From the NCBI GenBank assembly GCA_964587045.1, contig CAZPJY010000010.1:1-47609 (forward strand): a stretch of DNA of 47,609 nt, given 5' to 3'. The DNA comes from an uncultured Methanosarcinales archaeon (GTDB lineage: Archaea; Nanobdellota; Nanobdellia; Woesearchaeales; CAZPJY01). The notes below the pieces were generated by a model. The model was not told where the DNA came from and made no database searches. It worked only from the letters and a program-made list of their open reading frames with translations. Shown piece after piece: positions 1 to 35,321 of this stretch; position 1 is the stretch's first letter; the number at the start of each line of letters is the position of its first letter. The translations under genes and the position numbers were made by a program.

Positions 1-3000
1 TGTCCACCGACCATGTGGTTGCTGATGATGCGTGCGCTGTTTCCGCCTCCTCCTCCTCCTCCCTCGCTGTGTGTGTCGCCGGCCTGTATCAGGAGGGAGT
101 CGTTGAGCCCTCCGTTCTCGAGTATCTGCACATACGTGTCGTTTTCGATTGCTGAGGCCCAGCCTGTTCCTGTGGTGGTGCCGAAGAGATCAGATGCCGG
201 AGGTGCGACTGGGTAGGGGTCTCCGCCGTCATCTATGTACACGAGGATGGAAGTGTTTGCGAGGACCTTAATGGCAACGGGTGTCGATGAGACTCCTCCT
301 ATGTTGTTGGTGACGGCTGTTCCCGCTGCTATCTCGTTGCTTTCTAAGTATGTGAAAGTCCCATCGCCGTTACCGCCGCGGTAGATATCTATCTTGGCTG
401 CTTCGTATGGGGCATAGAAGCTGAGGTCAGGAGTGTTAGAGCGCCCGTCCGGGAATACCCATGTGTCGGTTGCGAAGGCTATGGGTACTATGGCGTCGGT
501 GTCACCGTCATTTCCTGAAGCGAAGAACGGGGCTGTTCCTGAGAGGTTGGAGTTTTGGGTGGTATCTGCCTGGGCGAACTGCGCGACGTCTGAGGTGTTG
601 AGCAGGAGGCTGTCCGTTCCGAGATCCAAAAGGATGTAATTCCCGTCCGCTGCGCTTATTATGTCTAAGTCATCGCTTGCGAGGTTGTCCTGGACGACGA
701 AAAATAACGTCTCGGGCTGGGAGTAGTTGAATACCTCCATGCGGTCGCTCTTCTTGACTGTCTCGGCGGCGTAGCCGTAATAAAGGTAGACTGTGCTCGT
801 GCTGTTGGCTAGTATCAGAGGTACCTGGGCCCAGATCCAGGTTTCTTGTCCGCCGCATCCAAATACGCTGCTGCGTTCCAGATAGAACGGGATTTCCTGG
901 TTGCTTGAGTTGACCACCCGTATGTCTGCGCAGTCCGAGCGCATCTTGCCAGAAGATATTAGCTCTGCGCTGTTTATTGTGAAGTTGATTTGGTATTCTG
1001 TGAGGTCCTGGTTGGTGTTCTCAACGATTCCAACCTCACGCCGATAGTTGTATGAGTAGTTCCACCATTCGAGGTCAGTCAGGTTCAGTACCTGCTCGGG
1101 GGCATATGCGTCCTGTTCGGTGCGCAGAATCATCGTGGCATTGACCTGCACCGCAAATGATGTGGTGTTGGTCGAAGTGAAGCCTCCAGTGTCGTTTGCG
1201 TAGATTTTGACGCCGTAGGTTACGGCCCCCCATGTGTCTGAGAAGTTGGCTTCAAAGACGCTTCCGGAAACGTTTTGCATGGTGATGTTGGTCTTCGCTC
1301 CGCTTACAGGATAGGTTATCTCGGCTATTACCATGCTGACATTGCTGACCGCGTCTGTCACGTTGGCCCTCAGCGTGACTGTTGAGTTGTGGCCTATCAC
1401 TGGAGGGATTACTGAAAGCTCCCTGACCAATGGCGGGTCGATGTCGACTGTGAAACCGCGGTAGGTTGTCGAGTTTGCGAACTTGGCGTCGCTTGCGTCC
1501 TCGCATGTCACGTTCCACCTGCGGTAGCCTGAGGTGAAGTTCCTGGTGAAGCTCTGGGTGATGTTTTGGACGACTGCGTAGTTGGGCGGGTTGCTGACGG
1601 TCCCATTGATGAATAGGCGGCAGCGGAAGATTCCTGAGCCGATGTCGGTCGTGTTGTAGTAGAAACTTACCGTGTCCGTGTTGAATAGCTGTCCGTCACC
1701 GGGCCCCTCAGCGTACACCAGAGGAGGTGTTGCGTCCAGGTATATGGTGTCGTTTGTGAGGGCCGACTCGTTGAACACGTTGTAAGCTTGGAAGAAAACA
1801 ATCTTTTGACCATCACCGGGCTGACACCCAAGTGTTGCGTTGGTCAGGTTGAAATTGAGGTACCAATTGGTTGCAGAAAGGTTGGTCCAGGCAGTCCAAG
1901 CGGTCGCGTTTGAGGTGTCGTTTTGGCATGAGAACCTGGTGTACCTTACATAGCTCCCGCCATGGTACAGGTTTGCCGCTTGGGTGGTGACTGAGACGTC
2001 GCCTCCTTCGATCTGCAACCAGGGCGCTGGCACTGGCACATCAACCCCGAAGTATCTGGTCTCGAAATCGATGATTCCTGAATTGTTGATGTACACGATG
2101 ACGTTATGAGGACCCTCTGCGAGGGGTCCAAGAGTTATCGCGAAACCTGAGACGTTGTCGTACTGGGAGCTGTTGCTTCCGAAGTCGATGCTGTACCACG
2201 TGTCGAAGCTGCCGTTGAGCGTCACGTTCAGCTTCGGGGACTCTGTGGTCTGGGTGGCGTTGGTAGGTGTCAATATTGTGATAAGGCCTGTTCCGATGTA
2301 GAACTTGACATTTTGGCTAGTGCCGAGGTTGCCGACCGTGTCGTTGCAGTAGTATGTTACGTTGTGGTAGCTGTAGACCGCAAGGTCGCTTCTGTTGTAA
2401 TAGAACGCGCTGTCGTTGATGGCGTTCATCGTGAAGTTCCATGTCTTGTCAACTTCAGCAAGGCACGTGTGTCCTGACTTGTCAAGCGTGACGTTAAACC
2501 ATATCTCTCCTGCGGTGTAGGACTTAGACTCGGGTGACAACACCTGGATGGAGGGGGGTTGGGTGATGTCTTGGACAATTATGTCATCGAAGTCCGCGAT
2601 GCCATCCCTGACATAGAACCCCACACTTCCGTTGGTGTCCCAGCCCAAGTCATCATACCCGTACATCATGGTCCAGTTGTTGGGTTCGGTGTCGGACGAG
2701 TTCCAGACCATAGCATATACTGTGACATTGGTTGAGTAGCTGCGCACCCTTATCTTGAAGCTTACCCATGTGTTGTTGGCAGGGACGAAGCCACTCCTCC
2801 TCTGTGAGGGGAGGTTGTCGAAGTCAAGGGAGCTGGATGAATCCACCTGGAATCCGTTTGTTATTCCGTTGAACCACCTGAGCCTGTAAAAATTCGCTCC
2901 TGGGCCGTCGGAATAGAATATTACTCCGAGGCCTGCTGAGCTGCTGTAGTTACCCCTCATGCGGAACTGGCCTTGGTACATGTAATCAAGCCAGCTGGTG

Positions 3001-6000
3001 GCGTTGGTTGTGTTGTACCAGGAGTAAGTCTCGTTTAGGCCTGCTGTGTCACCAGTGTACCAAACTCCTGTGCCGTTGTCGAGCGTTTCATAGTTGTCGT
3101 ATTCGGTTGGTTCTATCTGCATGTTGTGGTAGTCCTTCCAGTTGGGGGGGTCGGTGTTGTTTGCGTACGATTCGAAGTCCTCATAAAGGTAATAGCCGTA
3201 GTTGTATGCGTATGCTTCCTGGCTTCCGAAGCTGAAACTCAGCACGTGGCGGCCGAGAGTGATGATTTGGTCATCCAGCTTAGAGGGGTTCTCGCAGGTC
3301 CAGTTGAAGTACTTAATCGACTCGACCTCGAGGCTCTCCCCCGATATAGAATTGTAGGGGACTTCTGTCCCGTTGGAGAGCAAGAGATACACTTGGTCCG
3401 TCCTCGCCTCATCTCCGCAGTAAAGCGCCAGATAGACAAGGTCGTCGAAGGTGAGGGGTAGATCGTTCTCCATCTCAGCGAATGTGGTGCCCTGCGTTGG
3501 CGTGATAGTAAGTAGGTCTGTTCCTGTCGTGTTGAACCCCACGGTCCAGTTCCCGAAGAGCGATGGGGTGGACTTGACGTTAAGTATGGTAATTGAGACC
3601 TCATATGACTGGTTAGAGAGGTGTGGCACGATCCATTCTATCCTGTCTACCAGCCCGTTGCTGTTGGTGTCTAGCAGCTGGAAGTCCTTCACGGGTTGTC
3701 TTGTGCCGTTTTGCAGCCAGTAAAGCGAAACAGCATCATACGGGCTTTCCTCTATTTGGGTGAAGGCGCGGATGTTTTCGTAGTGGGTCTCGCTTGTCAC
3801 GGTGATGACTTTTCTGAATCTGCTTATCTCCTCTTCCTCCTTCTCAGGAGGTTCGGTTTCATATACCACCCAAAGCAGCTGGTCCTGGCTCAGAGCTGCT
3901 TTGATGTCAGTATCGATTGTTATGGTTGGAGATTCCTGCCTTAGTCCTGCCAAGGAAGCTATCTTGACCGCTTTCCTCTGCGCCAATCCTTCCTTCCTGG
4001 ATTCGACCCACTCCTTGGATCTTTGTCTGAAGGCCTCAAGGGAAGCGGGTTGGCCTCCCACGCGGAGCTTGACCAGGCTGTCGGGGAGCCTTTTGCCTGA
4101 GGAGTCCAGCAATGTCAAGTTTATGGTGCCATTTGGAAGGCGCAATGAGCTGGTGCTGTTAGCCTCGATGACTCTCACCCACCTAACAGGCTTGCCTATT
4201 TCAGCTTCGCCCTGCTCTGCGGCGTCTTCGGGTTTGGTGACTGGCTCTGTTTCGTTGTCCGCAGATTCTTGGGTTTGCGCCTCTATGCTTGACTCTAGGT
4301 ATTCCAGGAGGGTCTGCTTTGTAGGGTACCCTGCGACCTGCGAGACCCTCACCAGCTTGATCGCGTCGGCGACCACCAACCCTTTCGTCTTCTCGTTGCT
4401 TATCTGGAAAGTGCTCGAGCCGTTAAAGGAGTACAGGCCCAGATACTTCCATGAGGCGCCTCCCTCCTGCAGGTTAATCTCCACCTGCTCTTGCCCATCG
4501 ACATTGCTGATTGTCGCAGGAACCGAGCTTGCGAATCCAGAATCCGACGGGTGCCAGATGTAAAGCTCGTAGCTGTCCTCCTCAAGGCTGGGGGTGTACG
4601 TCACTGATTTGGCCCCCTTGCCGATGCCGAAATCATGCAGGTAATCATATCCATAGTAGCCTGGGATGAGATAATCATCGATCCACTGTCCTGATGTGGT
4701 GACCCGACTGTCCCCATTGTCTATAATATAATCTTGGGGCCAGATGATCTTCTGCGCAATTGGCAGGACGACCACGCCCGCATCTTCTGAAGCTGATTCT
4801 CCATAATATACATACAGCGATGTCTGGTCGTTGGGAAGGATGCCCTCGAGTCCGAAGAGTATGTAGCCCTGCCCTTCATTCAGCCTGCTTGAATCTACCT
4901 TGGGCTCGAAGGAGTTGAACCTCGTCCCGTCATAGAGACTGAACATTGGCCTCAGGGATGAGATATCAGTGCTGCCCAGGTTGACAGGCACCTTGACCGT
5001 GTAGATTTCACGGTTTAGATGGCGCACATCCTTCACCTGGATTATGAGCCTCCTGTTGAGGCTCTCGTCCTCCCAGACACTTGAGAAGGTCGCCTTCCTC
5101 TCATTGTTCAGCGGATTTGTATCCTTGAATGGCTGCCCCTGCTCGTCTTCGAGCCTGCCTGCCACGAACACCTTATCTGTCAGACTGAGTTCTGGCAAGG
5201 CAGGACTGACACTGATCTCGGCATCCTTCGGGACCTCTACTGGCATCCTGTCGGATCCTTTGAATAGGCTGCCTTCTGACTCAATAGCGTAGGATACGGT
5301 GAGCCAGACCTTCTTGGCGACCAGGTCGTTGTTCCTTATGACGAAGCTTGCCGTGCCGTTCTCCAGCACCACCTCGGTCAGGTCGAGATCATCATAGTTG
5401 GTCGGGATGGCCTCTTCGACGCTCTCAACAACGGTAGTTGTGTCCTTGACTTCAGAGCTCAGGTTGGCATTGTTGGAGCGGGCGGTTATGGTAGTGACAT
5501 CAGACGTGCCGGGCTCCGCGTCTGGCGGGATGTAGACCTGCGCTGTTATCCTCATCTCCTGGGCAGGGAGGAGGATGCCTGTGTCCAGCCTGCCGTCGTT
5601 GTTGTTGTCAAGGAGCTTCTGGCCGCTCTGGTCGACGAGCAGTACGGTAGAGAGGTTGGATTTTATCTCAAGCTCTATTATATCTGTCCTGTTGAGGTCG
5701 TTGTTGCTCACAATGTGTTCATACTCGACCATGTAATTCGGCGAACCCGTCCCGTTCCTGCTGGGACTGATCGTGATGGATGGTGTGGTCGCGTACTTCT
5801 TGAAGGTTGTGGCAAGCCTGTCACCCTCTGCGGTCCTTGCGATGACATAGAACCTTCCGACACCGGTTATGCTAGTTAGGTTTATTTCGCCGTCACTGTT
5901 TAGCCTGGTTGCGCCCTCTTGGTCATACACTGTGAAGTTGAGGCCTTTTGTCGGCAAGCTAAGGTTCACTCCAACGACCAAGACCCCCTTGTCCGGAGCC

Positions 6001-7817
6001 CTGCCCAGCTCATCCAGTCCGGTCAGTGTGATGGCCGTTATCTGCTCTTGCGGGTAGGTTCCGTAGTTAATCCTCGATTGGGGGAGCAGCGAGAACGCCG
6101 TGCCGTTTTGGGACATTATCGTGATGTTAAGGTCGCCTCCAGGTATGTCGAAAGTCATGAGTTCTGAGGCATTGCCTGACATCGTGAACTGCCTTTCAAG
6201 CGTTTGGGTCCCGCTTTCTATGGTCAGTATTGCCGGGACGTCGCCGCTGGCGCGGTAGATCAGGTCCACTGTGAGGTTGGTCCCTGCCGCTCCGCTGATT
6301 GAGATTCCGACCATGTCGGTGTCGTTCGCCTGCAAGTATGAGGTTTTACCTACCTGTTTGAGTAGCCCGATTAGTAAATCCTGATACAGTCTGTCATAGA
6401 AGTTGAACTCGTAATTGTCATCTGTCCAGCCTGTTGCCTGTCTGCTCCCTGACAGGATGTACCTGAGTTTCTGTCCGGCTGCGTGAGGTATTGAAACCTT
6501 GTATAGTCCAGCGGAGTTTTTCGAAGGTGACAGCACAATTTCATCTTGCCATTCCCTGAGGGAGTACTGCATCTCCTTGAAGCCAGGGGCAAGCGTCGCA
6601 TTGATGTCTATCACGCGCTGCTCGAACGCGGCCGGCACGCCTCGCATGTTTTGGGTCAGGTTGAATACCTCAGCCCCGTTTTCCTTCTTCCCCCGCGTGA
6701 GGAGGTGTCCCACCCTCAGGTAGCTGTCTGCCTGTTCGAACTCGGGGCTTTCGGGCACTATAACAGACACGCTAGGAGTGTTTGGCAGGATTACTTCTGA
6801 AACCTTCCAAAGCTCGCCATAGTAAGGATCGTACGCTAACGTCGAGTTGTCGGTGATGACTACATCCTGTCGCTTCGCTGCGGTCAGGGTTATGTAGGCC
6901 TCAGCGTAGGACCCGTCCGCGGTCAGGTACGCCCTCCCGCTGTATTCACCTGGCTCACTGACTGACAGGTTGGCATAATAATATAGTGTGGTGTAGGTGC
7001 CGGATGGCGGAAGCACTAGGGTGTCAAATGATCCGGATGGCGTCTCGATCTCGAGGTACGCAGGAGGCATGCTGGACAGAGGGGTCTTAGACACGGCTGT
7101 CAGGTTGATGGCAGCAAGATCTCCCAGGTACGCGTCAGGTGGGGACTGTATGCTCAGGTTGAGGGTGCCTGTCTGGTTGCCTTTTATGTAGAACTGTTTC
7201 TTGCTCGTATAGCCCAATCCCTTGTACTCCAAATCAGAGACCAGGAAATATCCTGACGTGTCGTATATCTGGTCGGTCACGCACTCGAACTGGCAGGGGG
7301 ACTTGCATTCTAAGTCGCACAGCGGGATCCTCTGCTTGCCGTCCAGGGTCTCGATGCTGAGGTTCAGCCAGGCTTGGTCGATGTTTAGTTCTATTCCCCC
7401 TGCGATCCTGACATAGTCACCCATCATGAAGGAGGATGGTATGGTCACTTCGGTCTCTATTACCGGAGCCTTAGCGGTGAACGATTTGGTCGCTGTCAGC
7501 TCGTCCGTGCCCATCTCAGTTACGGCTTTTACTAGGTACAAACCCTTTGATGGCGGATAATAGGTTGCTGTGTACACACCTGTGAAGGTGTTCTCAAGCG
7601 GGACCTGCTGGGTCGAGTTGTCCGGCAGGCTGATCTCCAGGTATGTCGGTACGGATAGTATTATCACATCGCCGACATATGAGCTCACGTTGATTTCTAT
7701 CGGGCTGAGTATCTCAACCGCTTGGCTGGATAGGTTCAGTCTCACATTTAGGGTTTCTTCTGAGCTTATAGCAGGCAAGAGCAGGAGGATCATGAGGGTA
7801 AGGATTGCGGCCCTCAT
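1..7817 (-). CDS. Giant secreted multidomain surface protein (>2,605 aa, 3' end beyond the window): Ig-like, Golvesin/Xly-CBD-like, lectin-like and DUF2341-like domains
   Basis: Manual translation from ATG at 7817 (preceded by AGGGGTG) gives signal peptide MRAAILTLMILLLLPAISS and stays open to position 1. Motifs: YIDNGDS..PGYYGYDYLHD..VVADAIKLV (about 4350-4730); DTNSNGLVDRIEWIVPHLSNQ (about 3610-3670); EDFESY..ADFDDIIV (about 2575-3190); WWNYSYNYRRE..GKMRSDCADIRVV..VYLYYG (about 770-1070). Many N-x-S/T sequons. Confidence 0.9.
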   Translation of the reverse strand, partial: MRAAILTLMILLLLPAISSEETLNVRLNLSSQAVEILSPIEINVSSYVGDVIILSVPTYLEISLPDNSTQQVPLENTFTGVYTATYYPPSKGLYLVKAVTEMGTDELTATKSFTAKAPVIETEVTIPSSFMMGDYVRIAGGIELNIDQAWLNLSIETLDGKQRIPLCDLECKSPCQFECVTDQIYDTSGYFLVSDLEYKGLGYTSKKQFYIKGNQTGTLNLSIQSPPDAYLGDLAAINLTAVSKTPLSSMPPAYLEIETPSGSFDTLVLPPSGTYTTLYYYANLSVSEPGEYSGRAYLTADGSYAEAYITLTAAKRQDVVITDNSTLAYDPYYGELWKVSEVILPNTPSVSVIVPESPEFEQADSYLRVGHLLTRGKKENGAEVFNLTQNMRGVPAAFEQRVIDINATLAPGFKEMQYSLREWQDEIVLSPSKNSAGLYKVSIPHAAGQKLRYILSGSRQATGWTDDNYEFNFYDRLYQDLLIGLLKQVGKTSYLQANDTDMVGISISGAAGTNLTVDLIYRASGDVPAILTIESGTQTLERQFTMSGNASELMTFDIPGGDLNITIMSQNGTAFSLLPQSRINYGTYPQEQITAITLTGLDELGRAPDKGVLVVGVNLSLPTKGLNFTVYDQEGATRLNSDGEINLTSITGVGRFYVIARTAEGDRLATTFKKYATTPSITISPSRNGTGSPNYMVEYEHIVSNNDLNRTDIIELEIKSNLSTVLLVDQSGQKLLDNNNDGRLDTGILLPAQEMRITAQVYIPPDAEPGTSDVTTITARSNNANLSSEVKDTTTVVESVEEAIPTNYDDLDLTEVVLENGTASFVIRNNDLVAKKVWLTVSYAIESEGSLFKGSDRMPVEVPKDAEISVSPALPELSLTDKVFVAGRLEDEQGQPFKDTNPLNNERKATFSSVWEDESLNRRLIIQVKDVRHLNREIYTVKVPVNLGSTDISSLRPMFSLYDGTRFNSFEPKVDSSRLNEGQGYILFGLEGILPNDQTSLYVYYGESASEDAGVVVLPIAQKIIWPQDYIIDNGDSRVTTSGQWIDDYLIPGYYGYDYLHDFGIGKGAKSVTYTPSLEEDSYELYIWHPSDSGFASSVPATISNVDGQEQVEINLQEGGASWKYLGLYSFNGSSTFQISNEKTKGLVVADAIKLVRVSQVAGYPTKQTLLEYLESSIEAQTQESADNETEPVTKPEDAAEQGEAEIGKPVRWVRVIEANSTSSLRLPNGTINLTLLDSSGKRLPDSLVKLRVGGQPASLEAFRQRSKEWVESRKEGLAQRKAVKIASLAGLRQESPTITIDTDIKAALSQDQLLWVVYETEPPEKEEEEISRFRKVITVTSETHYENIRAFTQIEESPYDAVSLYWLQNGTRQPVKDFQLLDTNSNGLVDRIEWIVPHLSNQSYEVSITILNVKSTPSLFGNWTVGFNTTGTDLLTITPTQGTTFAEMENDLPLTFDDLVYLALYCGDEARTDQVYLLLSNGTEVPYNSISGESLEVESIKYFNWTCENPSKLDDQIITLGRHVLSFSFGSQEAYAYNYGYYLYEDFESYANNTDPPNWKDYHNMQIEPTEYDNYETLDNGTGVWYTGDTAGLNETYSWYNTTNATSWLDYMYQGQFRMRGNYSSSAGLGVIFYSDGPGANFYRLRWFNGITNGFQVDSSSSLDFDNLPSQRRSGFVPANNTWVSFKIRVRSYSTNVTVYAMVWNSSDTEPNNWTMMYGYDDLGWDTNGSVGFYVRDGIADFDDIIVQDITQPPSIQVLSPESKSYTAGEIWFNVTLDKSGHTCLAEVDKTWNFTMNAINDSAFYYNRSDLAVYSYHNVTYYCNDTVGNLGTSQNVKFYIGTGLITILTPTNATQTTESPKLNVTLNGSFDTWYSIDFGSNSSQYDNVSGFAITLGPLAEGPHNVIVYINNSGIIDFETRYFGVDVPVPAPWLQIEGGDVSVTTQAANLYHGGSYVRYTRFSCQNDTSNATAWTAWTNLSATNWYLNFNLTNATLGCQPGDGQKIVFFQAYNVFNESALTNDTIYLDATPPLVYAEGPGDGQLFNTDTVSFYYNTTDIGSGIFRCRLFINGTVSNPPNYAVVQNITQSFTRNFTSGYRRWNVTCEDASDAKFANSTTYRGFTVDIDPPLVRELSVIPPVIGHNSTVTLRANVTDAVSNVSMVIAEITYPVSGAKTNITMQNVSGSVFEANFSDTWGAVTYGVKIYANDTGGFTSTNTTSFAVQVNATMILRTEQDAYAPEQVLNLTDLEWWNYSYNYRREVGIVENTNQDLTEYQINFTINSAELISSGKMRSDCADIRVVNSSNQEIPFYLERSSVFGCGGQETWIWAQVPLILANSTSTVYLYYGYAAETVKKSDRMEVFNYSQPETLFFVVQDNLASDDLDIISAADGNYILLDLGTDSLLLNTSDVAQFAQADTTQNSNLSGTAPFFASGNDGDTDAIVPIAFATDTWVFPDGRSNTPDLSFYAPYEAAKIDIYRGGNGDGTFTYLESNEIAAGTAVTNNIGGVSSTPVAIKVLANTSILVYIDDGGDPYPVAPPASDLFGTTTGTGWASAIENDTYVQILENGGLNDSLLIQAGDTHSEGGGGGGGNSARIISNHMVGG

Positions 7818-7855
7818 CACCCCTTTTTCTCCATCCTTTCCGAACTGAGATCCTA

Positions 7856-8452
7856 TCATGTGTCTCCTAAAAAGCGTCTGTAGATCTTTTTCTCCTCCTG
7901 TGTCTCCAATGATGATATTACCTGTATCAGGCGAGTGTGCTTGAGTCCTACCTGTGCTTCGATTGCGGAGATGGGCACTCCTTTTTGGTAGGCGTGAATT
8001 ATGTGGGTGTATCTGAAGGTTTGGGGGAAGGCCTTATACTCCAGGTGGATTTTGGACAGGTAGATCATGACCAGCTGCCGGATCCTTTTGGTGGTCATCT
8101 GGGCTGACTGTCTCGTGTCGAAGATGTAGGAGGTCGGCTTTTTGTCCTTGCAGAACCGTTCTATTCTCTTGGCGAGGCTCTTGGAGATGTAGCAGTGCCT
8201 TTCTTCCCTGTACTTGTTGCCTTCTGACCTTATGTGTGCTGTGGCCTCTTTTGGGTCCAGGTCGCTAACCTTGACGTTGACAAGCTCGTTGACAGTGCAT
8301 CCGCTTTCGTAGAGGAAATCGAGAATGAGACGGTCGCGTTCGGGTGCGGACAGGCTGTCTATGGCCTTCTTTTCTGCTGTGGTAAAGTAAGGGAGGGGTG
8401 CTCCGCTAGGCTTGACTTTGCTCTTGCCCTTCCCTTTCTCCCTCGGCATCAC
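7856..8452 (-). CDS. Tyrosine recombinase (Xer/integrase) catalytic-domain-only protein with degenerate active site
   Basis: Box I RDRLILDFLYESGCTVNELVNVKVSDLD, hairpin GNKYREERHCYI, box II PQTFRYTH..GVPISAIEAQVGLKHTRLIQVI. Start is GTG 8452 or ATG 8449. Confidence 0.85.
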   Translation of the reverse strand: MMPREKGKGKSKVKPSGAPLPYFTTAEKKAIDSLSAPERDRLILDFLYESGCTVNELVNVKVSDLDPKEATAHIRSEGNKYREERHCYISKSLAKRIERFCKDKKPTSYIFDTRQSAQMTTKRIRQLVMIYLSKIHLEYKAFPQTFRYTHIIHAYQKGVPISAIEAQVGLKHTRLIQVISSLETQEEKKIYRRFLGDT

Positions 8453-8478
8453 TATCTCTCGTCAGCATCGGGCAAGCA

Positions 8479-8506
8479 GTTTCCCTTTTCTGAATTAAAG
8501 GGAATC
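8479..8506. promoter_or_regulatory. 28-bp dyad site 1 (11-6-11): GTTTCCCTTTT-CTGAAT-TAAAGGGAATC
   Basis: Imperfect inverted arms around a 6-bp spacer, read directly; lies 27-54 bp upstream of the recombinase-like gene start. Confidence 0.7.
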
Positions 8507-8598
8507 TTAATGTCAGCCATTTTTAGATGGTCGACTTTGCCTTCCACTACATCTCTCGGCTATAAATCGGGAATCAATATTTCATATACTGAAATACA

Positions 8599-8626
8599 GT
8601 TTCCCTTTTATGAACCATTAGGAAAC
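8599..8626. promoter_or_regulatory. 28-bp dyad site 2 (11-6-11): GTTTCCCTTTT-ATGAAC-CATTAGGAAAC
   Basis: Same left arm as site 1, exactly 120 bp downstream of it. Confidence 0.7.
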
Positions 8627-8711
8627 ATGGTTTTTTGGAGCTCCCACACATCCCATGAAGACAAAACCGGCCTGATGACGCGAAGATCCAGCCATTTGCC
8701 CTGAGGACCAT

Positions 8712-8739
8712 GTTTCTAATTTCTGTAAAAAAGGGAAAC
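8712..8739. promoter_or_regulatory. 28-bp dyad site 3 (11-6-11), inverted: GTTTCTAATTT-CTGTAA-AAAAGGGAAAC
   Basis: Right arm is the exact reverse complement of GTTTCCCTTTT. Inner 10-mers GAAACATGGT (8622-8631) and ACCATGTTTC (8707-8716) are perfect inverted repeats. Confidence 0.7.
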
Positions 8740-8848
8740 TGCTATATATACTTTTTGGTGATAACCAAAGGGCGTTGCAATTGAGGGCAGGATTTAAGTC
8801 CTACTCTTGGGTGGGCACATACTCTCCTCGGAAATGGAAAATGATAAT

Positions 8849-8864
8849 CGAAAGGTTTATATAC
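8849..8864 (+). promoter_or_regulatory. Archaeal BRE-TATA promoter of the first archaellin
   Basis: CGAAAGGTTTATATAC about 30-45 bp upstream of ATG 8893; similar elements near 11976, 16592, 18727 and 19895. Confidence 0.65.
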
Positions 8865-8892: not shown

Positions 8893-9870
8893 ATGCTCAA
8901 ATGGGTTCGAAGGAATAGAAGGGCGTTAATGGGTATAGGAACCCTTATCATCTTCATAGCGACTATTCTGGTCGCTGCTGTTGCGGCGGGTGTTCTGATA
9001 TCGACCTCCAATGTCTTGCAGCAGAGAGCACTCCTGACAGGACAGGAGGTGCGAAAGCGCGTCACCAACAGTATTCAGGTGATATCTATTCTCGCAGGTG
9101 GCAACTCCACTTCTGAGGAAATAAATGACTTCGAGATACTCATAAGGCTTGAGGCAGGCTCTGATCCCGTGCAGATGAAGAAGTTTGATATCCAGTGGAT
9201 ATCTCCCCAGCATGATGCTGCTGCCAGCCTCCAAGATCCAGAGCTCGATACAACCTTCATTACGATTGGGCTCGTTTCCAACAATTCCTATACCAACTTC
9301 GGAGACCTTGATGATGACGGCAGGACTGATAGCGTCACCATCATAACCCCTTACTCCAGCACATGCTGTGGGTGGAACAGCACGGACGACGACGCCCTGC
9401 AGTTCAACATTTCAGGCTATGGAATCTCAGATCCTGTCGACCTCGGCTATGACCTCTCGACCGGTTCGAATGTGACTTTCAGTCCACCTACCTATGAGGA
9501 GGCGATTGTGACCAGCGACGGCCATGTGTTGGGGTTCGTAACTGTCGATGGCTACTCAGGCACAACGGCCAATCAGCTGGATGCCTCTGCCAACATCACC
9601 ATCAAGAGATTCCCTGACATATGCGACTTCGACCATGTCATACCTGAGGACTATTACTGCGTTGAGGTAATGCACGGCAACACTGACACGGTCCTTGATT
9701 CAGGAGAGAGGTTCAAGCTTATTTACAAGGTTCTACCAGCAAATGTTCTCGGAATCAATGAGGAGTTCCAGTTCATATTCACGGCTGAGAAAGGCAGGTT
9801 GTCTGAGGTCAGAGCGAGGACGCCTGATGTAATCGTTACAAGGAAGGTCAGCCTCTGGCCGCTTGGATAA
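8893..9870 (+). CDS. flaB: Archaellin (ArlB/FlaB), divergent paralog
   Basis: Class III signal peptide [34 protein letters not shown] motif, C-terminal RTPDVI. Confidence 0.92.
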   Translation: MLKWVRRNRRALMGIGTLIIFIATILVAAVAAGVLISTSNVLQQRALLTGQEVRKRVTNSIQVISILAGGNSTSEEINDFEILIRLEAGSDPVQMKKFDIQWISPQHDAAASLQDPELDTTFITIGLVSNNSYTNFGDLDDDGRTDSVTIITPYSSTCCGWNSTDDDALQFNISGYGISDPVDLGYDLSTGSNVTFSPPTYEEAIVTSDGHVLGFVTVDGYSGTTANQLDASANITIKRFPDICDFDHVIPEDYYCVEVMHGNTDTVLDSGERFKLIYKVLPANVLGINEEFQFIFTAEKGRLSEVRARTPDVIVTRKVSLWPLG

Positions 9871-11334: not shown

Positions 11335-11934
11335 TCACTTCCTGGCCCTATAAAGCACCTTCTTTTCGAACGGCACTTCCTTGAACAGGTCTGAGAACGC
11401 CCGGGTGAGTGGCGATTCCCAGTGCTCGAGCAAGCTTTCGATCTCATCTACAGGTATTTTGGTTGCGGCGCTGATTTCCTGGGGTGTGAAGTACTCGCCT
11501 GCCTTGTTGCTGAGGAATGAAATAATCTGGTCAGACTTCTTGGTGTCAATCCAAAAACCCTTTGACAAGAACTTGTTTACGGCCCTCCTGACAGTCGGGT
11601 TCCTGCTCACAAAGATGACTGATGGGGTGATGATGCGCTGCTTGTTGCCGGCATATGACATTTGAGTCTCTATCAGTCCTGCGTCCTGGAGCTTGTTGAT
11701 GTTTTCGTGGATGGTCGAGGAGGAGTGTCCGATTTTTTCCTTGACCCGTGACGGGGTGGTGTTGCCCTCCATGGTGAGGACCTTCATTATCTCGCGGGGG
11801 ATCAGCTGGGACCAGAGTTCTATGATTTTCGCCTTAAGCTCTGGGTCTGTTGAAGGGGGATAGATATCGAGGATGGTGTTGCTGCCCTCATCATAGTAGG
11901 CGATATTTTCCATTAGCTTGACTTTGGCCAGCAT
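11335..11934 (-). CDS. Winged-helix (ArsR-like) transcriptional regulator, probably with a second C-terminal wHTH
   Basis: TPSRVKEKIGHSSSTIHENINKLQDAGLIET and FTPQEISAATKIPVDEIESLL; divergent from the arlF/G-H-I-J genes. Confidence 0.8.
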   Translation of the reverse strand: MLAKVKLMENIAYYDEGSNTILDIYPPSTDPELKAKIIELWSQLIPREIMKVLTMEGNTTPSRVKEKIGHSSSTIHENINKLQDAGLIETQMSYAGNKQRIITPSVIFVSRNPTVRRAVNKFLSKGFWIDTKKSDQIISFLSNKAGEYFTPQEISAATKIPVDEIESLLEHWESPLTRAFSDLFKEVPFEKKVLYRARK

Positions 11935-19865: not shown

Positions 19866-19963
19866 AATTTTTTTCCGAAATAGCGTCGAAAAATCAAAAA
19901 GTTTATATACTAAATAGTCCAAAAAAGTTGTATAAAATTTTTTTAGTTTCGGAGGTACGCACA

Positions 19964-20183
19964 ATGGCTGCAAAGAAGAAGAAGCCTGCCAAGAAGAAGG
20001 CGGCAAAGAAGAAGCCTGCCAAGAAGAAGGCGGCAAAGAAGAAGCCTGCCAAGAAGAAGGNNNNNNNNNNNNNNNNNNNNNNNNNNNNNNNNNNNNNNNN
20101 NNNNNNNNNNNNNNNNNNNNNNNNNNNNNNNNNNNNNNNNNNNNNNNNNNNNNNNNNNNNCGGCTAAGAAAAAGAAGAAGTAA
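19964..20183 (+). CDS. Histone H1-like Lys/Ala/Pro repeat protein, interrupted by an assembly gap
   Basis: GGAGG RBS then MAAKKKKPAKKKAAKKKPAKKKAAKKKPAKKK, N-gap 20061-20160, then ..AKKKKK-stop. Confidence 0.8.
19977..20060 (+). repeat. 30-bp tandem repeat AAGAAGAAGCCTGCCAAGAAGAAGGCGGCA (KKKPAKKKAA)
   Basis: Nearly three perfect copies running into the 100-N gap. Confidence 0.9.
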
Positions 20184-33300: not shown

Positions 33301-35321
33301 CTACGCGGACTGCACCGATGGGGTCGCGTGCGACCCGGACGTGACCGACGGGACATTCGATACCTTGTATGGGAGGCTGGCGCCGGACGCCGATGACGAT
33401 AGTCTCGGATGCTGCCCGACTACCCAGTGCTGGGACAGTTCCGCGGGTTCATGCGTCGCTGGAGGCACCATACATACGTCGGTCACTGAGTACATCTGCT
33501 CAGGCAGCGACAACAACTGGATCCGATGCTCCGCGTCCACGCAGTGCGACGAGTACGGCTTCTATTACTGCGACGGTGCGTTTACCTGGACCGGGGGCAG
33601 CAGCAACGGCGTCGATGCGGCCTGCTCCTCTTGCAGGCTCTGCGGCGGCACCGCAGCTGTCGGAGAGGGCGACCTTTCATGCAGCGAATACGTTGCCGAC
33701 TTCGATGATGACGACTGCGCAGCGTGCACCAGCTGCCGGAGCGGCTCTTGTGATGCGACAGAATACACATGCGGATCGCAGGACACCTACGCGGCAGGTA
33801 GCGGCACGTGCAGCGGCACGAGCAGGTGCGACGGCGCGGGCAACTGCGACACCTCTGTTTCGAACTGTCCCTCAAGCCAGTGCTTTGACAGCACATACAG
33901 CTGCACACCCCCTAACGTCGCTCAGGACTGCTACACATCTGGCGACCATGACTGCCCCGCATGCCAGGCTTGCAACGGCGCTGGAGCCTGCGCTGCCTCT
34001 CAGAGTTGCGGTGTTGAAGACGCTCTTGGGGCTAACACTTGTTTGCTTGCGAGTGATGATTTGTGTGATGGTTTGGGTGCTTGTGATACTGATGTTGCTA
34101 ATTGCGGTTCTGCTGTTTGTCATGACGGTACTTACTCTTGCGGTGCTGGTAGTGTGAGTGAGGATTGTTATACTTCTGGCGACCACGACTGCCCCGCTTG
34201 CCAGGCTTGCAACGGCGCTGGAGCCTGCGCTGCCTCGCAGAGTTGCGGGGTTGAGGATAATTTGGGTGCTAACACTTGTTTGCTTGCGAGTGATGATTTG
34301 TGTGATGGTTTGGGTGCTTGTGNNNNNNNNNNNNNNNNNNNNNNNNNNNNNNNNNNNNNNNNNNNNNNNNNNNNNNNNNNNNNNNNNNNNNNNNNNNNNN
34401 NNNNNNNNNNNNNNNNNNNNNNGTGTGAGTGAGGATTGTTATACTTCTGGCGACCACGACTGCCCCGCTTGCCAGGCCTGTGGCGGCGGCGGCTCTTGCA
34501 CTGCCTCGCAGAGCTGCGGGACCGAGGACACGCTGGGCGCTAACACCTGTCTGCTCGCGACCAACGACCTCTGCGACGGGCTCGGAGCGTGCGACGCTGA
34601 CGTCACCAACTGCCCGTCCAACCCCGAGTGCTGGGACACGACCTACAGCTGCGGCGCAGGAGCGGTCAGCCAGGACTGCTACACGTCAGGCGACCACGGG
34701 TGCGCGGTGTGCAACTCCTGCGACGGCAGCGGGGCGTGCACAGGCTACACAGCAAACAACGACGTGGACGGGGACAACCAGAATTCTGACGACTGCAACT
34801 ACTGCAACTCCGGCTCATGGTCAGCGCGGGCGCAGTGCGACGGGACAGAATGCGCGGGAGACGCTCGCTGCGAGACCGCCGGCGGAGACTGCGCCTACCC
34901 CGACGCGTCGACGACTGTGTGCGCTACCTGCTACTCAGGCACGTGGTACACAGGCGCGTACTACGAGGCCGGAGGCGGCGACTGCTGCGGCGACGACGCG
35001 AGCGAGAACTACCGCTCAAGCTCCAGCGGCAGGGTGTGCGTGAACGCGTGCTGCGACAACTCAGCTGATTTCGTCGACTCTAACGGCAACTGCTGCGGGA
35101 CGCCCGACTCCGCAGACGGCGACGGCGCCAACTGGGTCATCAATGAGGCGTGCACCTTCGGGAGCGCCTGCACGGTCCAGATCGACACGCACGTCAAGCT
35201 CCAGGGCTCCTCTTCTGTCACGGTTCAGGGCACGTGGGACTTCACGAGCACCGGCCAGCGCATCTTCATGTATTCAGGAGCCGACCTGTACGTCGAGTCA
35301 GGCGCGACCGTCCAGGGCTAA
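30338..35321 (+). CDS. Giant secreted Cys-rich protein (about 1,650 aa or more) spanning the assembly gap 34323-34422
   Basis: Signal peptide MRVAILLIMLLALATSVLG. ORFs 30338-34432 and 34158-35321 join in frame if the gap holds the 66 nt seen in the preceding repeat copy (34086-34151), plus any whole 237-bp units. Confidence 0.85.
33926..34730 (+). repeat. Intragenic 237-bp (79-aa) tandem repeat DCYTSGDHDCPACQAC..LGANTCLL..LCDGLGAC
   Basis: Unit starts at 33926, 34163, 34434 (after the gap) and a partial unit at 34674. Confidence 0.9.

Follow-up and report, generated by a model that had tools for sequence, protein, structure and literature searches.

A disarmed Xer-type domain, its upstream palindromes and the probable control of a giant surface-protein operon in an uncultured archaeon

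The minus-strand gene at 7856..8449 of the window (the whole stretch analysed, 47,609 nucleotides of contig CAZPJY010000010.1 from an uncultured archaeon) encodes a CAT-domain-only protein of 197 aa that resembles the Xer recombinases but has lost most of their catalytic residues. Judged from sequence comparisons, it is probable, though well short of certain, that this domesticated, disarmed CAT domain acts as a sequence-specific autorepressor of the operon that it shares with a giant surface-protein gene. A pair of subunits would sit on 30-bp palindromes upstream of their own gene, the pair on the palindrome beside the promoter (site 3) would block RNA polymerase at the start site, and the outcome would be negative feedback on a costly surface protein of 2,600-3,300 aa.

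A prior sequence-only reading of this gene had described an intact open reading frame with a tyrosine recombinase fold, no N-terminal core-binding domain and four of six catalytic residues replaced, and each part of that description was borne out. The frame is open over 7856-8452 (-), giving 198 aa from a GTG at 8452 (an alternative start) or 197 aa from the ATG at 8449. Residues are numbered here from the ATG (protein P0002), one below the earlier 198-aa numbering, in which T53, K80, Q144, R147, L170, I179 and Y191 were all confirmed by reading the translation. In phmmer alignments to XerA (4a8e, 5hxy) and XerD, the R-K-H-R-H-Y columns read T-K-Q-R-L-I, i.e., T52, K79, Q143, R146, L169 and I178. 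PF00589 spans residues 32-174 (E 6.7e-16; 59 bits, above the cut-off of 27.1), no core-binding family was matched, the match to the XerA model NF040815 is confined to profile positions 103-263 (81.6 bits, cut-off 220), and the AF2 model (pLDDT 89.4) has no helix ahead of residue 24. The best Foldseek matches of this model were the XerA structures 5hxy and 4a8e (TM 0.68-0.74, and 0.72-0.74 to 5hxy).

The one caveat raised earlier, that Tyr191 near the C-terminus might be the nucleophile, was settled against catalysis, and the candidate was rejected: this residue aligns with Y310 of 5hxy, 12 residues past the nucleophile-column Tyr (the column of Ile179 in the earlier numbering), and so with a second, non-catalytic Tyr already present in intact XerA. 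An intact Xer, P0007, also has Tyr in both the nucleophile column and the Y190 column, and based on the presence of both in P0007 and 5hxy, Y190/191 (codon 7880..7882, minus strand) was assigned to the C-terminal helix; it lies outside the nucleophile column and is kept in 91 of 95 clusters of relatives. A homodimer prediction scored 0.31 against a mark of 0.42 and weighs neither way. Two other genes of the source genome (G000; 1,605,157 bases) are Xer-like and have their catalytic motifs intact, one of them being truncated at a contig end; a single-protein scan of genome contigs gave a sole, distant match at 22%.

The loss of catalytic residues extends across a family. A profile search recovered 95 clusters of 155-339 aa, with 32-49% identity to the query, which come from one archaeal order (organism labels: Woesearchaeota, Nanoarchaeota or just 'archaeon') and whose members are currently annotated as 'integrase' or 'XerD'. 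The box I column of these 95 holds Thr in 92, Asn in three and Arg in none; the second-His column holds Gln in 87 and His in three; the third His/Trp column has Leu in 58, Ile in 22 and Met in 14, with neither His nor Trp in any of 94; and the nucleophile column has Phe in 59 and Tyr in 22 (non-Tyr in 73 of 95). The second Arg is retained in 92 of 95 clusters and R173 in 90 of 95. Outside the core, the best-conserved stretch is RQS...TTKRIRQ, in which all 122 aligned members have R122 and Q125. The earlier remark that Lys80 is kept holds for the query protein but not as a family invariant, the column being Arg in 62 clusters, Lys in 27, a gap in four and another residue in two (n = 95). The suggestion of selection for a non-catalytic role rather than decay was strengthened by the fixation of the same substitutions in the 95 clusters, and by pN of 0.22-0.32 versus pS of 0.59-0.92 in the 14 closest locus pairs, whose synonymous sites are at or near saturation. 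On these codon comparisons, the family is under purifying selection. A decaying one-off allele, with close homologs that retain R/H/Y, was rejected, since the catalytic loss is family-wide, the homologs are without the R/H/Y set and pN is well under pS.

Matches at 1e-30 occur in 36 of 401 genomes of the order, about 30 of them disarmed members; G083 and G236 aside, the weakest include intact CAT-only proteins, e.g., that of G055. A search of 301 genomes of the phylum gave 14 matches, every one within this order. Among the best 150 representatives (clustered at 50%), 85 are single-domain proteins and 65 contain at least two domains, and a full catalytic set is present in 12 single-domain matches, 11 of which are short and CAT-only-sized. 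Tandem double-domain members of 290-390 aa (P0098, P0101, P0103, L120:3320-4360, L121:4502-5500) are candidate single-chain pseudo-dimers; in many of the tandem forms the C-terminal segment is missing from the alignment. A tree of 65 rows has a 97-supported branch with every one of the 36 disarmed domains on one side of it, and another branch with the full-length Xers on one side, the intact CAT-only proteins lying in between; the order of events would depend on where this tree is rooted, and one row labelled 'intact' (P0153) has Thr at box I.

The short CAT-only genes, of about 205-215 aa, stand beside two conserved coiled-coil genes at L027:9911-10525 (G055), L122:3967-4593 (G081), L123:3554-4168 (G230) and L029:9598-10245 (G049). 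The sequences of L027 and L029 show a full catalytic set, and upstream of both L027 and L122 lies a 12-6-12 site whose spacer is identical in the two. These proteins are possibly active recombinases without a core-binding domain, and they are likely the sister group of the disarmed family. An apparent intermediate that has lost only the box I Arg lies at L124:4117-4809 (G135); the gene upstream of it is coiled-coil-like, and the one downstream is large and of secreted type.

The 440-nt spacer upstream of the window's disarmed gene contains a 30-bp imperfect palindrome in three copies, each built of two 12-bp arms around 6 bp of spacer. Site 1 (8478..8507, plus strand) lies 29 nt upstream of the ATG, site 2 (8598..8627, plus strand) has a different spacer, and site 3 (8711..8740, minus strand) is a third copy in the opposite orientation; the spacers differ in all three, the site starts are 120 and 113 nt apart, and sites 2 and 3 form an inverted pair around 75 nt. 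The strong 12-mer arm, AGTTTCCCTTTT, occurs four times in the 1,605,157 bases of the genome, three of them in this spacer. Site 3 begins 2 nt past a TATA-like box (8743-8750) that, together with a purine-rich BRE-like stretch on its upstream side (8743..8758 in all, minus strand), forms the predicted promoter of the recombinase-like and giant surface-protein genes. Since the archaeal TATA box is centred 26-27 bp upstream of the point where transcription begins (PMC6316755), the predicted start (about 8720) falls within site 3. A sigma-70 promoter scan, with a model unsuited to archaea, gave no matches. Two DNA sequencing runs yielded nine short contig pieces, none of them across the sites, and no joints.

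The fourth genomic copy of the site (C31:20968-20997) is flanked by two operons, one of ThiS/TtuA type and one with zinc-finger, TBP and MCM genes. It stands immediately upstream of the ThiS-family gene's TATA box, and a copy with the same position and orientation is found in G003 (L077:935), the two genomes belonging to two families. Among five other genomes checked, this remote site is weak in G073 and unseen in G065, G365, G089 and G091; further remote sites, G365:C1 and G003:C64, adjoin unrelated genes. A regulon upstream of TBP genes was considered and rejected, as no consistent site was found there in 30 genomes (18 with a family match and 12 without).

Similar sites accompany the gene at the loci of its relatives. 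With L063 (another subfamily) and L059 (no upstream DNA) left out of the motif counts, 28 of the 40 family loci had a half-site in the 450 nt upstream, compared with a mean of 2.4 and a maximum of 8 in shuffles, and with control counts of 1 of 16 intact Xers, 22 of 1475 genes of the source genome and 4 of 29 TBP genes. A profile made from the window's sites alone performed best with spacers of 6-8 (14, 16 and 12 of 41 loci; at most 6 with other spacers). The arm-to-arm distances bunch at totals of 30-32 bp, which account for 28 of the 58 pairs. In 31 of the 41 loci the site core lies 8-14 nt past the start of a TATA-like hexamer (shuffles: mean 4.2, maximum 10; opposite-strand control: 10 of 41 loci), a layout that two tandem-member loci share. 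Against the autorepressor reading, the loose TATA-plus-core pattern also fits 113 of the 791 genes of the source genome that have a TATA-like hexamer, and 8 of 29 TBP genes. The unpublished G182 locus L049 is included in the half-site and spacer counts and excluded from the covariation, dN/dS, downstream-gene and TATA-core counts; the tandem L073 is excluded from the covariation and dN/dS pairs.

A strict version of the pattern was designed after the loci of six positive genomes had been viewed, so its presence at least twice in 6 of the 401 genomes of the order (G000, G003, G065, G091, G365 and the unpublished G182) is partly circular, and its absence elsewhere is the clean test. These six are exactly the genomes with the six best protein matches. 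The strict pattern occurs once in 11 of the 401 genomes, and its reversed control once in 19 and twice in none. Counting against the autorepressor reading, only 7 of 36 protein-positive genomes carry it, the others having variant sites or none. A held-out genome, G504, bore out the prediction for the TATA box, for the site and for the secreted-type gene; G445 repeats locus L033 and so is no independent test. At that locus (L125:2130-2448 in G445), a 74-bp unit with a site in it is repeated in tandem at least 4.3 times upstream of a family member whose downstream gene is not secreted-type. Across loci, there are 26 distinct spacers among 31 sites, the outer six arm bases are conserved and the inner arm is merely AT-rich. 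The second arm is weak in many loci (0.2-0.5 bits at positions 25-28), another point against an autorepressor. A covariation of helix and site, Arg at residue 124 with C at arm position 7 (11/14 vs 5/17, Fisher p 0.011), was unsupported after kinship correction, with only two independent pairs on well-supported branches.

The gene that would share the regulated operon is a giant open reading frame (1..7859, minus strand) of at least 2605 aa that runs off the contig and has a hydrophobic N-terminus, Golvesin_C and DUF2341. Its ATG at 7859 shares bases with the stop codon that ends the recombinase-like gene (ATGA), and ATG 7817 is the more likely signal-peptide start. The giant protein has one copy in the genome, and homologs lie downstream of the family gene in 10 of 16 loci tested, the homology spanning most of the length in L032, L034 and L039. 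More broadly, in 34 of 37 loci the next gene downstream starts with a hydrophobic, signal-peptide-like segment (by a threshold without a control), and in G208 one tandem and one single member each directly precede a different secreted-type gene. Elsewhere in the source genome, C1:1-70356 and C13:1-16692 contain a number of very long ORFs, the longest of 8,507 aa, and most of them start with a hydrophobic stretch; for a genome of 1.6 Mb this is a large repertoire of surface proteins.

On the other side of the spacer, an archaellin paralogue (8893..9870, plus strand), with a putative TATA-like box at 8856..8863 (plus strand), is the first gene of an archaellum cluster that reaches 18709 and includes a FlaC domain, a winged-helix gene, a short archaellin-family gene, a KaiC-type ATPase, T2SSE, T2SSF and two more archaellins. 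The winged-helix gene (11335-11934, on the opposite, minus strand) is a candidate archaellum regulator, and G003 has a similar one (L025:5834-6430). Farther along the window, a Lys/Ala-rich repeat ORF enters an N-run at 19960-20167 and a second N-run region lies at 34158-35321; both are probable assembly gaps.

How a CAT domain alone might read such sites is suggested by XerH, in which a CAT-domain helix sits in the outer-arm major groove and the core-binding domain makes most of the base-specific contacts (PMC5241119). The conserved TTKRIRQ helix (residues 119-125 of 197; 8075..8095, minus strand) is, by way of the XerD and XerA alignments, the putative equivalent of that XerH helix, and each subunit would insert it into the major groove of one outer arm. 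From the XerH placement, a CAT-only protein would be expected to keep the helix and to select the outer bases only, and this is the pattern seen: conservation of the outer six bases next to an AT-rich inner arm fits outer-arm reading without a core-binding domain. The two subunits would pair via the C-terminal helix carrying Tyr191, or be fused in the tandem forms; in XerH, the C-terminal helix docks into the neighbouring subunit and mediates cyclic swapping (PMC5241119). The predicted position of site 3 over the start is also that of the sites of the archaeal repressors Phr, LrpA and TrmBL1, which overlap the transcription start site (PMC6316755), and the unlike spacers argue for an operator and against a crossover site. 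Several observations pull the other way, i.e., the domain responsible for most base-specific contacts in XerH is absent here (PMC5241119), SroF, a repressor with a recombinase fold, binds as a monomer (bioRxiv 10.1101/2025.11.27.690993), Tyr persists in the nucleophile column of 22 of 95 clusters and R173 in 90 of 95, a displaced Arg can stand in for the box I Arg in IntDOT (PMC8138268), and another potential regulator, the winged-helix gene at 11335-11934, is nearby.

Three regularly spaced sites between divergent promoters could also bring to mind an architectural factor or two-way switch, in which a synapse-like tetramer would loop the three sites, repress the surface operon and alter the divergent archaellum promoter. 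An archaellin paralogue within 1.5 kb in 13 of 37 loci, the conservation of the C-terminal helix that is the cyclic-swapping element in XerH (PMC5241119) and the remote copy just upstream of the TATA box of the ThiS-family gene in two genomes are all in its favour. It is nonetheless unlikely, as most loci have one or two sites, an archaellin is absent nearby in 24 of 37 loci and where present may be divergent or co-directional, 116 nt separate site 3 from the archaellin TATA box, and a clear remote site was unseen in four of the five other genomes checked. Crossover by tyrosine recombinases normally requires matching spacers, and the three spacers of the window are all unlike, as are 26 of 31 across loci, which makes it quite unlikely that the sites are targets of an intact Xer encoded elsewhere in the genome, with the disarmed protein as a partner or blocker that does not itself cut and that controls inversion, excision or amplification of the surface-gene cassette. 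Moreover, no inversion between any pair of sites would shift the TATA box at 8743-8750, and the inner arm bases, which the core-binding domain of active Xers reads (PMC5241119), are the least specific. What speaks for such targets is the 12-6-12 shape, the inversion of sites 2 and 3 around 75 nt, the two intact Xer-like genes in the genome, the 74-bp array of site-bearing units in G445/L033, the similar site upstream of intact CAT-only relatives, and the precedent of streptococcal difSL, which adjoins xerS in one module (PMC1914069).

We consider it very unlikely that the palindrome is the operator of another regulator, travelling with the gene via a shared operon while the disarmed protein has some other non-catalytic job. 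A winged-helix gene is present in the neighbouring cluster of both G000 and G003, and the dead Xer-like YnbA of streptococci failed to bind difSL (PMC1914069), but the site accompanies the gene also where the archaellum cluster is absent, its geometry and outer-arm conservation suit a CAT domain, and few parts of the protein are as well conserved as the recognition helix. Highly improbable in our estimation is an unorthodox recombinase that stays active by means of substitute residues, e.g., R173 or R113 for box I and Tyr190/191 in trans. The conservation of R146, H149, H152, R173 and Y190, the use of an alternative catalytic Arg by IntDOT (PMC8138268) and the existence of FimB/FimE-size invertases of about 200 aa (the NF007370/1 models) lend it something; the joint loss of four of six positions, with a non-Tyr nucleophile column in 73 of 95 clusters, the alignment of Y190 with a non-catalytic Tyr of intact XerA, the many tandem forms without an aligned C-terminal segment and the variable spacers stand against it.

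If the autorepressor reading is true, the family is a recombinase-derived class of archaeal transcription factor that now goes under the wrong annotations 'integrase' and 'XerD', and of which what look like evolutionary intermediates survive. As both operator and targets are predicted, it could be tested in vitro without culturing the organism, and it would provide a handle on the control of the largest surface proteins of uncultured symbionts, which are candidates for host attachment. A bolder proposal, and a rather doubtful one, is that one order of host-dependent archaea converted a Xer stepwise (through core-binding loss, catalysis loss and tandem fusion) into its own transcription factors guarding giant adhesin-like genes, with recombination-style synapsis of three operators, at loci such as this one, switching between swimming (the archaellum) and attachment to a host.

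Among known systems, the active Xers, XerA (4a8e, 5hxy; NF040815) together with XerC, XerD and XerH, are the closest in sequence and fold, and share the C-terminal helix and a two-arm site with a spacer of about 6 bp (6-8 bp here, where the site is associated with the gene and binding would be a prediction), whereas the disarmed protein lacks the core-binding domain and four of six catalytic residues and has several sites with unlike spacers. The intact CAT-only Xer-like proteins of the same order (L027:9911-10525, P0141, P0177), for which no published name was found, match it in size, domain layout and the possession of an upstream palindrome of their own, but differ in their full R-K-H-R-H-Y set, two coiled-coil neighbours and identical spacer in the two sites compared. 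Invertases of the FimB/FimE type are active: their catalytic set is complete, and the promoter that they flip is framed by inverted repeats whose spacers match. Here the catalytic set is lost, the spacers are unlike and the TATA box falls outside the inverted pair. The streptococcal XerD-like YnbA is likewise a conserved chromosomal protein without catalytic residues, and has no recombination activity (PMC1914069); its model, NF002685, matches the disarmed protein weakly (E 7e-4). In a survey of tyrosine recombinases, simple recombinases usually comprise CB plus CAT, and no such disarmed CAT-only group was noticed there, although its supplements could list these proteins (PMC8138268); a literature search with limited coverage of subscription journals found no paper on the disarmed archaeal family.

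The most instructive comparison is with MrpR (YopR) and SroF, the master repressors of SPbeta-like Bacillus phages (PMC10516654; bioRxiv 10.1101/2025.11.27.690993; PDB 9rd5, 9rgl) and the sole well-studied prokaryotic precedent found, which the archaeal family, if read correctly, would extend to a cellular CAT-only form. As described for MrpR/SroF, the recombinase fold is kept, catalytic Arg and His are replaced, recombination is absent and repression acts via a repeated DNA element (PMC10516654), and the SroF structures are among the Foldseek matches of the disarmed protein (E 4e-5 to 1e-4). At the archaeal locus, a repeated site lies over the predicted start, where it may play the operator's part. 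The differences are equally clear. MrpR/SroF keep the core-binding domain, at about 320 aa, and the archaeal proteins are CAT-only, at about 180-200 aa, or fused in tandem; MrpR/SroF keep the nucleophile Tyr and have lost the second Arg (PMC10516654), the reverse of the archaeal family, in which the second Arg is kept and the Tyr mostly lost; the 26-bp SroF box is bound by a monomer that clamps the DNA with CB and CAT (bioRxiv 10.1101/2025.11.27.690993), and the archaeal site is a two-arm palindrome; and MrpR/SroF are encoded by phages or prophages, the archaeal gene among archaellum and housekeeping genes. With the fold search placing the protein nearer to XerA than to SroF, its origin was probably independent of theirs. 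The disarmed family belongs neither to MrpR/SroF nor to the active Xers.
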